Source of the DNA: a virus | Taxonomy: Duplodnaviria > Heunggongvirae > Uroviricota > Caudoviricetes | IMG/VR virus record: IMGVR_UViG_2740892442_000004 | DNA length: 64,000 nucleotides | Direction: 5' to 3' (one strand) | In this document: positions 21,347 through 21,512 of the stretch, piece by piece | Numbering within the stretch: the stretch's first letter is position 1 | Layout: every line of letters starts with the position of its first letter | Program-made: the position numbers and the translations under genes | Notes under the pieces: generated by a model | The model's input: the letters and a program-made list of their open reading frames with translations, nothing else | What the model was told of the DNA's origin: nothing | Databases searched by the model: none

Positions 21347-21512
21347 CGAGGTCAGTTTCCAGCCTCGTTACCGAAATGGGACACACTGAGCGAGTGTGAT
21401 TGCAGAACGCAGGAGGGAACATGAGTGTTCCCTCCGATGAAGTAACAGAATGGGCGGTTGGTATATTTTCAACTCCATATGACTCCCGGATTCTTAGCCA
21501 CTGACCGCCCAT
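21347..21512 (+). ncRNA. Candidate structured RNA: four consecutive perfect hairpins
   Basis: CGAGG..CCTCG (21347-21367), CACACT..AGTGTG (21382-21398), GGAGGGAAC..GTTCCCTCC (21412-21435), ATGGGCGGT..ACCGCCCAT (21450-21512); no credible ORF. Confidence 0.3.

Follow-up and report, generated by a model that had tools for sequence, protein, structure and literature searches.

A tmRNA-like tag template preceded by a segment complementary to host tmRNA: a candidate tag-swap RNA in enterobacterial phages

Trans-translation by transfer-messenger RNA (tmRNA, SsrA) together with SmpB is a major ribosome-rescue and protein quality-control pathway of bacteria and an antibiotic target, and tmRNA influences the growth of some phages, among them lambda-immP22 hybrids and Mu. 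Natural two-piece tmRNAs also exist, in alpha- and beta-proteobacteria and in cyanobacteria (Rfam RF01849-51, RF04321). On the phage side, the survey by Hudson, Lau and Williams reported ssrA only in mycobacteriophages and Bacillus phage G, with full tmRNA genes in Bxz1-like mycobacteriophages and in phage G, and a fragment from mycobacteriophage DS6A that is reduced to the tRNA-like domain (TLD) was reported to inhibit tmRNA, probably by titrating SmpB (PMC4131195). Here we describe an element of a different make-up, located in a 64,000-nucleotide (nt) stretch of the Caudoviricetes record IMGVR_UViG_2740892442_000004 (the whole stretch is referred to below as the window); the region is that of an SSU5-like (SSU5/pHCM2) phage-plasmid, and ~100-115-kb Escherichia coli plasmids and Escherichia phage Cyrano match it at 99-100% identity, the plasmid pMB3825A_2 being 100% identical here. 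The element, a predicted RNA gene of ~270 nt (~21259-21532, + strand), probably specifies a tmRNA-derived RNA that acts on or with the tmRNA of the host. In the reading that we favour, with a probability of roughly 0.45, this phage RNA would mask the host tmRNA template and supply a tag template of its own.

The centre of the element is a short frame, ANEEVYLAVA-stop (codons 21299-21331), which in form nearly copies the tag ANDENYALAA of E. coli tmRNA. Relatives of this frame, gathered through an anchor downstream of the tag so as to avoid selection on the tag itself, comprise 34 distinct variants with the consensus A-N-[DE]-[ENDA]-x-[YF]-L-A-V-A-stop. Across these variants, 31 extra codon types translate into only 13 extra amino-acid types in the tag frame (18 are synonymous), against 26 and 20 extra amino-acid types in frames +1 and +2, and variable sites number 2, 5 and 9 at the first, second and third codon positions, a pattern which indicates that the frame is evolving under amino-acid constraint, that is, under purifying selection. 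A stop codon (TAA, TGA or TAG) is retained by 33 of the 34 variants; in the other (L071) it has become TTA directly followed by TAA, which yields an 11-residue tag. Exactly 10 codons are also found in divergent lineages, such as P1 (ANDDLMMVAA), Kuttervirus (ANDNTFLAVA), Erwinia phage phiEa2809 (ANDNEFKVAA), Chaseviridae (ANDSEMRVAA) and N4-like phages (ANEEAYLMVA, ANDDVVLMAA). Of 92 unique sequences, 82 lack an in-frame ATG, GTG or TTG upstream, and 67 have an in-frame stop 6-12 codons upstream of the tag. The linker preceding the GCA codon carries A at -3, -4 and -6 in all 92 sequences and, at -5, U in 87 and C in five; positions -4 and -5 match the frame-setting positions A86 and U85 of tmRNA, the former being the decisive base and the latter tolerating C (PMC2481249). 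The resume codon, the start-less short open reading frame (ORF), the terminal stop and the A86 equivalent that characterize a tmRNA template are all present, and the synonymous bias, the fixed number of codons, the retained stop, the missing start and the invariant A-4 together suggest that the frame behaves as a translated tmRNA template. Sub-threshold Rfam matches to tmRNA models align solely to their single-stranded tag part. The motif AN(D/E)xx(Y/F) is the SspB-binding part of the ssrA tag, and the C-terminal residues are the part bound by ClpX or ClpA; the phage tags keep the former and differ from the host tag in the latter.

The second key feature is the 5' end of the predicted RNA, which is complementary to the template region of tmRNA. 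Block A, GUUUUCGUUG (21259-21268), is complementary to nt 95-104 of E. coli tmRNA (tag codons 2-5), and block B, GCGACUGUUU (21273-21282), to nt 82-91, which include U85, A86 and the resume codon G90. With tmRNA, the segment 21259-21282 is predicted to form two 10-bp (base-pair) helices at -26.3 kcal/mol, compared with -10.9±2.9 for site-restricted shuffles, none of 2000 being as good; mononucleotide shuffles were used in all duplex tests, and the target site for the window was fixed beforehand from its relatives. In the family at large, the 5' motif (A)GUUUUCGU...GCGACU...(UUUGCGGnUUUUUA) resembles the reverse complement of E. coli tmRNA nt 68-106, an interval that runs from the 3' strand of pseudoknot PK1 through the A-rich linker (U85 and A86 included) and the resume codon to codons 2-6. 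For most of the Weber-like, HK620-like, Felix-like and grpN representatives tested, the Smith-Waterman score against the ssrA reverse complement was higher than those of all 1000 shuffles. Duplexes of -34 to -47 kcal/mol were predicted for P1, Kuttervirus, Erwinia Ackermannviridae, two N4-like phages, Weber-like phages (Drexlerviridae), HK620 and grpN, and duplexes of -26 to -39 in a set consisting of P1, two Ackermannviridae, two N4-like phages and several uncultivated contigs, with no equal among 1000 shuffles in either case. For 14 of the lineage representatives tested, 0 of 1000-2000 shuffles were as good (1/2000 for L096), with tmRNA nt 60-108 as the common target, and among 48 unique 5' parts, 46 have a best RNAduplex site in overlap with the resume codon. 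The family thus displays a conserved segment complementary to one defined site beyond chance, as do antisense small RNAs (sRNAs).

Pairing of the antisense segment with the template of the RNA itself was also considered; in all lineages it is less stable (-14 to -21 kcal/mol) than the duplex with host tmRNA (-23 to -47 kcal/mol). Block A stays constant as GUUUUCG (AUUUUCG in a few sequences) while codons 3-5 of the adjoining tag vary, the tags listed above lacking CGAAAAC, and the GCGAC variants GCGGC, GUGGC and GCGAU hold the pairing by wobble. A pairing of the 5' GUUUUCG with an internal CCGAAA (21372-21376) found no support in other lineages. The phage linker would leave the predicted duplex on the side of PK1 and share the orientation of the host template. 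Promoter-like sequences place the start of the transcript within a few nucleotides of the antisense motif in three lineages, and the extreme 5' end is the usual position of an sRNA seed. The RNA is predicted to pair with host tmRNA in vivo.

The family is unannotated, and it is widespread. Its Weber-type core matches 771 of 50,697 phage records (~1.5%) in at least eight unrelated lineages, namely Ounavirinae, Drexlerviridae, Ackermannviridae, Schitoviridae, Chaseviridae, Punavirus P1, P22-like phages and SSU5-like phage-plasmids, and ~215 further core matches, none of them annotated, lie in E. coli chromosomes. All informative members infect Enterobacterales. A low-stringency BLAST search located the widest conservation at ~21247-21401 (74-86% identity, 317 records, including FelixO1-like myophages, HK620/HK633, Klebsiella siphophages and others). 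Matches from a scan of genome contigs with a degenerate anchor of 18 nt were nearly all due to chance, with one real hit in 120. The element of the P22-like phage HK620 sits in the late leader, between pR'/qut and tQ. P1 has an unannotated member (AF234173.1, ~68566-68743; L301 1183-1360; tag ANDDLMMVAA) in the Pban leader, which is under C1 repression; this member directly follows the 'dicF-like region' and precedes tRNA-Asn and tRNA-Thr, and a duplex of -38.9 kcal/mol is predicted between its 5' part and nt 60-106 of E. coli tmRNA.

A sequence-only reading of the same DNA had pointed to four perfect hairpins at 21347-21512, in a region with no plausible protein gene, and had proposed for them a structured RNA or a processing or regulatory leader of the tRNA operon. 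All four stems are where it had placed them, with the qualification that stem 3 has 10 bp rather than 9 and that the 9-bp stem 4 is the top of a longer inverted repeat of 22 bp. The 166-nt hairpin region has a minimum free energy of -58.0 kcal/mol, compared with -45.3±3.9 for its dinucleotide shuffles, of which 0/200 fold as well (z -3.3); for the presumed full-length transcript (21258-21540) the fold z is -5.2, and the minus strand of the hairpin region folds less well (z -2.6). Because the stems are present and fold better than shuffled sequence, the observation is beyond chance. The idea of a structured RNA is borne out further by conservation across hundreds of phages and by compensatory changes in the stems of relatives, and the absence of a protein gene agrees with RefSeq, where nothing is annotated between tRNA-Asn and the upstream coding sequence (mis-named 'C-type natriuretic protein') on a 100%-identical plasmid. 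The stems do not, however, form a free-standing cluster: hairpins 1 and 2 are pseudoknot parts of a conserved core that begins ~90 nt 5' of position 21347, and both the tag frame and the antisense 5' end, just outside the interval singled out at first, had been missed. The hairpins instead make up the 3' part of the predicted RNA gene, hairpins 1 and 2 being the pseudoknot region, arranged after the tag as in tmRNA, and hairpins 3 and 4 lineage-specific 3' stems.

This arrangement is supported by two alignments. Among 26 non-SSU5 representatives (alignment A2), the cells of hairpin 1 (6 bp), hairpin 2 (5 bp) and the tertiary stem of pseudoknot PKa (4 bp) are 100% paired, and seven pairs change on both sides over the three helices, while slid controls are 32-42% paired. 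PKa joins the hairpin-1 loop to the 4 nt directly 5' of hairpin 2, through pairs as different as CCAG/CUGG, CCGA/UCGG and CCAA/UUGG, with CUCCA/UGGAG in L096, from the lineage of the window, and GUCG/CGAC in P1 and KP8. A second pseudoknot, PKb, pairs the hairpin-2 loop with a downstream segment in other lineages, in sequences that differ wholly between them (GCCC/GGGC, GCCCAC/GUGGGC, GCCCUGA/UCAGGGC, UCCCCGU/ACGGGGA, GACGGGAG/CUCCCGUC); no PKb partner is evident in the SSU5-like lineage of the window. The stem that closes on the end of the tag is represented in non-SSU5 relatives by an inner UAGCC/GGCUA stem with the stop codon in its loop (93% of cells paired), and its outer pairs are invariant and uninformative on covariation. 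Hairpin 3 occurs in more than 20 distinct variants (16 tabulated and others with an altered 3' flank), nearly all of them stems of 9-17 bp; the exceptions are L096 with only 6 bp, L084 with an interrupted stem and L073, in which it is deleted. It is akin to the AGGTAAGAGCATT/AGTGCTCTTTCC variable long-stem hairpins that follow the core in other phages. For hairpin 4, 99.6% of cells are paired in 26 SSU5-like sequences and five pairs change on both sides (slid controls 26-58%). The invariant G-U pairs assign the RNA to the + strand. The features of the element are listed in Table 1.

Table 1. Features of the element in the window, in 5' to 3' order
Feature	Position	Strand	Sequence or pairing	Basis or remark
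Promoter-like sequence	21224..21252	+	TTTACT 21224-21229, 17-nt spacer, TAAGAT 21247-21252	
Anti-tmRNA segment	21259..21283	+		RNA 5' end; RNAduplex and shuffles
A-rich linker	21284..21298	+	ends in ACAAGU	sequence comparison, 92 unique sequences
Tag template	21299..21334	+	GCA AAC GAA GAA GTC TAT CTG GCA GTA GCC TAA TAA (ANEEVYLAVA, two stops)	no start codon
Tag-end closing stem	21317..21346	+	CUGG 21317-21320 with CCAG 21343-21346	stop codons inside; seen in sequence
Hairpin 1	21347..21367	+		stem 1 of pseudoknot PKa; 3 pairs with two-sided changes in 26 relatives
Stem 1	21347-21351, 21363-21367	+	CGAGG with CCTCG	read from sequence
PKa tertiary stem	21357..21381	+	hairpin-1 loop UUCCA 21357-21361 with UGGGA 21377-21381	homologues 100% paired, 2 covarying pairs
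Hairpin 2	21382..21398	+		homologue 100% paired, 2 covarying pairs; stem 1 of PKb in other lineages
Stem 2	21382-21387, 21393-21398	+	CACACT with AGTGTG	read from sequence
Hairpin 3	21412..21435	+		10 bp; hypervariable sequence, compensated, dispensable
Stem 3	21412-21421, 21426-21435	+	GGAGGGAACA with TGTTCCCTCC; 10 bp	inverted-repeat scan
Hairpin 4	21437..21525	+		22-bp stem, 45-nt loop with conserved CCCGG
Hairpin 4, full stem	21437-21458, 21504-21525	+	22 nt, 91% complementary; 45-nt loop	inverted-repeat scan
Stem 4		+	ATGGGCGGT/ACCGCCCAT	top only of the longer inverted repeat; inverted-repeat scan
U-rich tract	21525..21532	+	UUUUGUUC	directly 3' of hairpin 4; read from sequence

Both boundaries of the transcript are putative. 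The promoter-like sequence, ~7 nt 5' of the conserved motif and with a predicted start near G21259, is kept among SSU5-like relatives, and Felix-like and Weber-like relatives have a near-consensus TTGACA-17-TATAGT/TAGATT at the equivalent place; its score is 8/12 and a consensus scan did not report it. We infer that it drives transcription of the RNA. At the other end, hairpin 4 is followed by UUUUGUU, a U-run that is weaker in Klebsiella relatives and that was not called by a terminator scan whose loop limit is 8 nt; it is a possible RNA 3' end or weak terminator.

In the proposed mechanism, a ~270-nt phage sRNA derived from tmRNA and devoid of a TLD would have three working parts: a 5' antisense segment pairing with host tmRNA from ~8 nt upstream of the resume codon to codon 5 (covering U85, A86 and G90); its own template, composed of the A-rich linker with A-4, GCA, ten codons and a stop within a helix-5-like stem; and a 3' scaffold of pseudoknots and hairpins, the four stems, which probably stabilises the RNA and ends the transcript. 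Pairing would render the host template double-stranded and unusable and would tether the phage template beside PK1 with the same polarity. Alanyl-tmRNA-SmpB would still rescue stalled ribosomes, translation would resume on the phage template, and rescued proteins would end in (A)ANEEVYLAVA instead of (A)ANDENYALAA; the outcome would be a trans-assembled two-piece tmRNA with a host acceptor part and a phage coding part. Such a swap in trans is favoured because a template without ribosome entry of its own is joined to an antisense tether to the host RNA that has it, with shared polarity, and the existence of natural two-piece tmRNAs makes a non-covalent assembly conceivable. Whereas conservation, structure, coding constraint, the absence of a TLD and complementarity to tmRNA are properties of the sequences themselves, transcription, pairing in vivo and use of the phage template would be steps beyond them. 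More tentatively still, we propose that many enterobacterial phages (P1, FelixO1-like, N4-like, Vi1-like, T1-like, P22-like, SSU5-like) might carry such a 'tag-swap' RNA, which would dock on tmRNA, silence its template and replace it.

Several points weigh against tag replacement. The evidence is computational throughout, and complementarity was compared with E. coli tmRNA only; the Salmonella tag, which we take to be ANDETYALAA, may mean a mismatch in block A. With the target widened to all 363 nt of tmRNA, the SSU5-like and Felix-like duplexes are not better than those of shuffles, and in the lineage of the window significance appears only with the target site pre-fixed from relatives. Chaseviridae members retain block B only, some P1-like copies (L402) lack the antisense part altogether, and the tag-bearing contigs L383 and L385 have no complementarity to E. 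coli tmRNA. A template in trans must moreover outcompete one tethered in cis, a duplex of 20-40 bp beside PK1 might not be tolerated on the ribosome, and there is no evident benefit in swapping one ssrA-like degron for another. As to the deviating copies, three contigs of tRNA-rich or jumbo phages have the tags ANDSIFAVAA (L383, 3574-3935), ANDSEYLVAA (L385, 6036-6433) and ANDDLFVVAA (L326, ~4780-4880) and upstream regions with nil or weak complementarity to E. coli tmRNA, and could be members adapted to other hosts. L402 and two similar P1-like viral contigs have lost the antisense 5' segment and hairpin 1/PKa and kept the tag frame; copies of this type are probably decaying.

The main rival is a pure antisense inhibitor, which would shut down host tmRNA or trigger its cleavage, leaving the tag frame unused or making it no more than a decoy for factors binding at the template region of tmRNA. 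It draws on the same complementarity, and several facts speak for it: a helix over tmRNA nt 85-100 abolishes tmRNA activity (PMC2481249), synthetic anti-tmRNA oligonucleotides block trans-translation in vitro, and phages do attack the template region of tmRNA, as in the cleavage by AcrIIIA1 (PMC11662646). We nevertheless hold it to be unlikely. It leaves unexplained the synonymous bias, the ten codons, the near-universal stop and an A-4 that is invariant across differing tags, and the decoy version is disfavoured because a decoy would conserve nucleotides, not amino acids.

Alternatively, the element could be the coding piece of a phage two-piece or split tmRNA whose acceptor lies elsewhere in the phage or is too divergent to be recognized, for instance in a neighbouring tRNA-like module. 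The element usually occurs among tRNA genes, and ARAGORN, relaxed or at default settings, makes 'tmRNAp' or 'tmRNA*' calls with these tags in SSU5, HK620, FelixO1 and Moogle. These calls, however, take their arms from real tRNAs nearby and extend over as much as 750 nt and as many as three tRNA genes; with -ps80, right tags come together with junk tags, the arms again being taken from real tRNAs. At default settings no tmRNA is called in the window, P1, SE14, phiEa2809, PYps16T, KKP3715 or KP8, and Rfam finds no tmRNA-type match at gathering score in the whole 64-kb window. Scores against RF00023 are 11-22 bits and those against the two-piece models, which are the best sub-threshold matches, 15-30 bits, with a threshold of 47, and the alignments cover model positions 51-311 or 83-140 of 374, never the tRNA-like ends. 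No lineage was found to have, in the vicinity of the element, a 7-bp acceptor stem with G3:U70 together with T-arm and 3' CCA; since this defining domain is missing, the element is not a tmRNA. Nor does an acceptor piece lie just upstream in one precursor, the upstream neighbour being a protein gene and the promoter-like sequence in the window, a promoter in Weber-like and Felix-like phages and a terminator in P1. The genomic neighbours also differ wholly between lineages while the antisense 5' end stays constant, and a split tmRNA is in our view improbable. A BLAST search of the region against E. coli chromosomes gave no ssrA match at E<=1e-5, the similarity being too short for blastn.

Several acceptor candidates were examined and rejected. 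Stem 4 (GGGCGGU/ACCGCCC-A-UCC) does not conserve a G-U at the position of G3-U70, and the UUCAACU of its loop is not conserved as a T-loop. FelixO1 has a degenerate tRNA-Arg(UCU) copy with, by eye, a G3:U70-like acceptor, at a place where its relatives have ordinary tRNA-Arg. Module 2 (22447-22547) lies just 5' of tRNA-Ser and consists of two hairpins with complementary loops (GCUGA/UCAGC) closed by UUGUGAUG/CAUCACAA; it recurs in HK620 (L002 ~1727-1830) and in Weber-like phages (L024 ~8617-8725), and its tRNA shape near the element in several phages speaks for the split-tmRNA reading. It has no CCA, no Rfam match and no G3:U70: its closing stem lacks a conserved G-U, and the copy in the window is fully Watson-Crick, which also removes it as an alanine acceptor. 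The Citrobacter phage Moogle deserves mention in this respect. Its genome announcement reports ssrA without analysing it further (PMC4319497), the only published trace of the family that we found; default ARAGORN calls there a 749-nt 'tmRNA*' (L124 624-1372) spanning tRNA-Lys, tRNA-Met and tRNA-Ile, with the same locus and tag (ANDNVFLAVA) as the element, and the Moogle record itself has no feature at this place. The tag is real, and the tmRNA gene is spurious, an artefact with a borrowed tRNA-like part.

The leader or processing region of a tRNA operon was a function suggested by the sequence-only reading; the long stems would then be RNase III or RNase E signals, or attenuators, for the downstream tRNAs. 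This function is distinctly doubtful for the element as a whole. The element does precede tRNA-Asn, Tyr, Thr and Ser in the window and tRNA genes in Weber-like phages, Moogle and P1, RNase III could plausibly act on stems of 20-22 bp, and similar long-stem hairpins stand between the tRNAs. Coupling to downstream tRNA genes is not constant, however: the core is conserved in HK620, Kuttervirus SE14, Erwinia phiEa2809, PYps16T and KKP3715, where no tRNA gene was found or annotated in the 1-3 kb around it. Hairpin 3 is deletable, ~450 nt separate hairpin 4 and its U-run from tRNA-Asn, the element has a promoter-like sequence of its own, and the covarying core, the selected reading frame and the antisense 5' end are left unexplained. 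The suggestion may yet apply to hairpins 3 and 4, as signals for processing or for the 3' end. A tRNA-Arg(UCU) comes after the element in Weber-like and Felix-like/Moogle phages (L024 8728-8881; L124 1431-1507; L300 1221-1377). This tRNA decodes the rare codon AGA, which is known to provoke ribosome stalling and ssrA tagging; the two may be associated by coincidence.

A conventional micro-ORF, in the tag frame or in the +1 frame (MQTKKSIWQ followed by a stop) and with normal initiation, is very improbable. The +1 frame does begin with ATG in HK620, Weber-like and Felix-like phages, with GTG in the window and with CTG in SSU5, and the lineage of the window has an in-frame TTG six codons upstream of GCA; but substitutions silent in the tag are radical in the +1 frame, the L274 variant turns its start into CAG, no Shine-Dalgarno sequence is visible, and the TTG occurs in few sequences, those with an upstream in-frame stop having no start after it. 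We therefore rejected the overlapping +1 frame on its substitution pattern and on L274. Finally, a decaying captured fragment of host ssrA or functionless chance hairpins, which could account for the host-like tag and for degraded copies such as L402, can hardly be reconciled with the spread over so many records and unrelated lineages, the compensation seen in each helix tested, the purifying selection acting on the tag and the fold z-scores.

Other elements surround the RNA gene. Long-stem hairpins with arms of 14-23 nt, variable loops of 38-82 nt, CACAAC...GTTGTG ends and AGGTAAGAGCATT/AGTGCTCTTACC-type stems lie between and around the tRNA genes (21597-21718, 22232-22322, 22370-22454 and 22641-22718); hairpins of this family, of which hairpin 3 is a local member, also come after the tag RNA in HK620, Weber-like phages, Moogle and P1, and they may be RNase III sites. 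Downstream of hairpin 4, 21566-21595 comprises a conserved GGCGACGTAGCCCGG and then hairpin 5 (GCTGG 21577-21581 with CCAGC 21591-21595; GCCAG/CTGGC in L096). Within it, GACGTAGC (21566-21573) can pair with GTTACGTC (21516-21523) in competition with the base of hairpin 4, a possible structural switch. The 15-mer ATGATTCCATACATC occurs at 20767-20781, the start of a 50-amino-acid ORF, and again 1 kb downstream at 21779-21793, as the beginning of a 29-codon frame on the 3' edge of the RNA cassette; it is kept at this edge in SSU5-like relatives and may mark a recombination or module boundary. Further away, a full-length Rfam match to the cspA thermoregulator (34188-34606, minus strand, 185.7 bits) means that the phage-plasmid carries the leader of a cspA-type cold-shock gene.

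A phage RNA aimed at the resume region of tmRNA would open a new front in the conflict between phages and hosts, and many phages of enterobacteria may block or re-program ribosome rescue in this way, the family reaching P1, FelixO1 and therapy-relevant phages of Klebsiella, Salmonella and E. coli. If tag swapping is true, the element would represent the first natural RNA regulator of tmRNA as well as the first trans-assembled host-virus chimeric tmRNA, and a virus would rewrite the degradation tag put on every aborted protein. Use of the phage template would further imply that an intact tmRNA can accept a template provided in trans, would provide a natural toolkit of alternative tags and would explain why the N-terminal AAN(D/E)xx(Y/F) is kept and the C-terminal protease-recognition residues are changed. 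Even a minimal reading matters for annotation: ARAGORN-based pipelines (e.g. Pharokka) miss the element or report a spurious tmRNA gene, and may propagate such calls.

The literature that we searched describes no natural sRNA targeting tmRNA and no phage template-only relative of tmRNA, and the family is not listed in the survey of phage ssrA genes, which could have covered FelixO1 and HK620 if they were in its RefSeq set (PMC4131195). Its closest counterpart is the one-piece tmRNA (RF00023), with which the element shares an A-rich linker with A-4, a GCA resume codon, a 10-codon tag of the form AN(D/E)...hydrophobic-A, and a stop codon inside a stem analogous to helix 5 (21317..21346) that is followed by H-type pseudoknots. 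Unlike tmRNA, it has no TLD, no helix 2 and no recognisable PK1, carries an additional 5' segment antisense to tmRNA, and measures ~150-270 nt compared with 363 nt in E. coli. The two-piece tmRNAs provide a precedent for acceptor and coding parts as separate base-paired RNAs; their pieces, however, derive from one permuted gene of the same organism and pair via helix 2, whereas the proposed partner of the element is the intact one-piece tmRNA of the host, contacted by antisense to its template. The conserved, seed-like extreme 5' end complementary to a specific host RNA is reminiscent of base-pairing sRNAs and of prophage anti-sRNAs, and its target recalls that of the synthetic anti-tmRNA oligonucleotides; unlike these sRNAs, the element also bears a translated-looking template. 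Lastly, it joins the DS6A fragment and the phage tmRNA genes as a phage-encoded tmRNA derivative, and relative to the TLD-only fragment of DS6A it is a mirror image, consisting of the template only.

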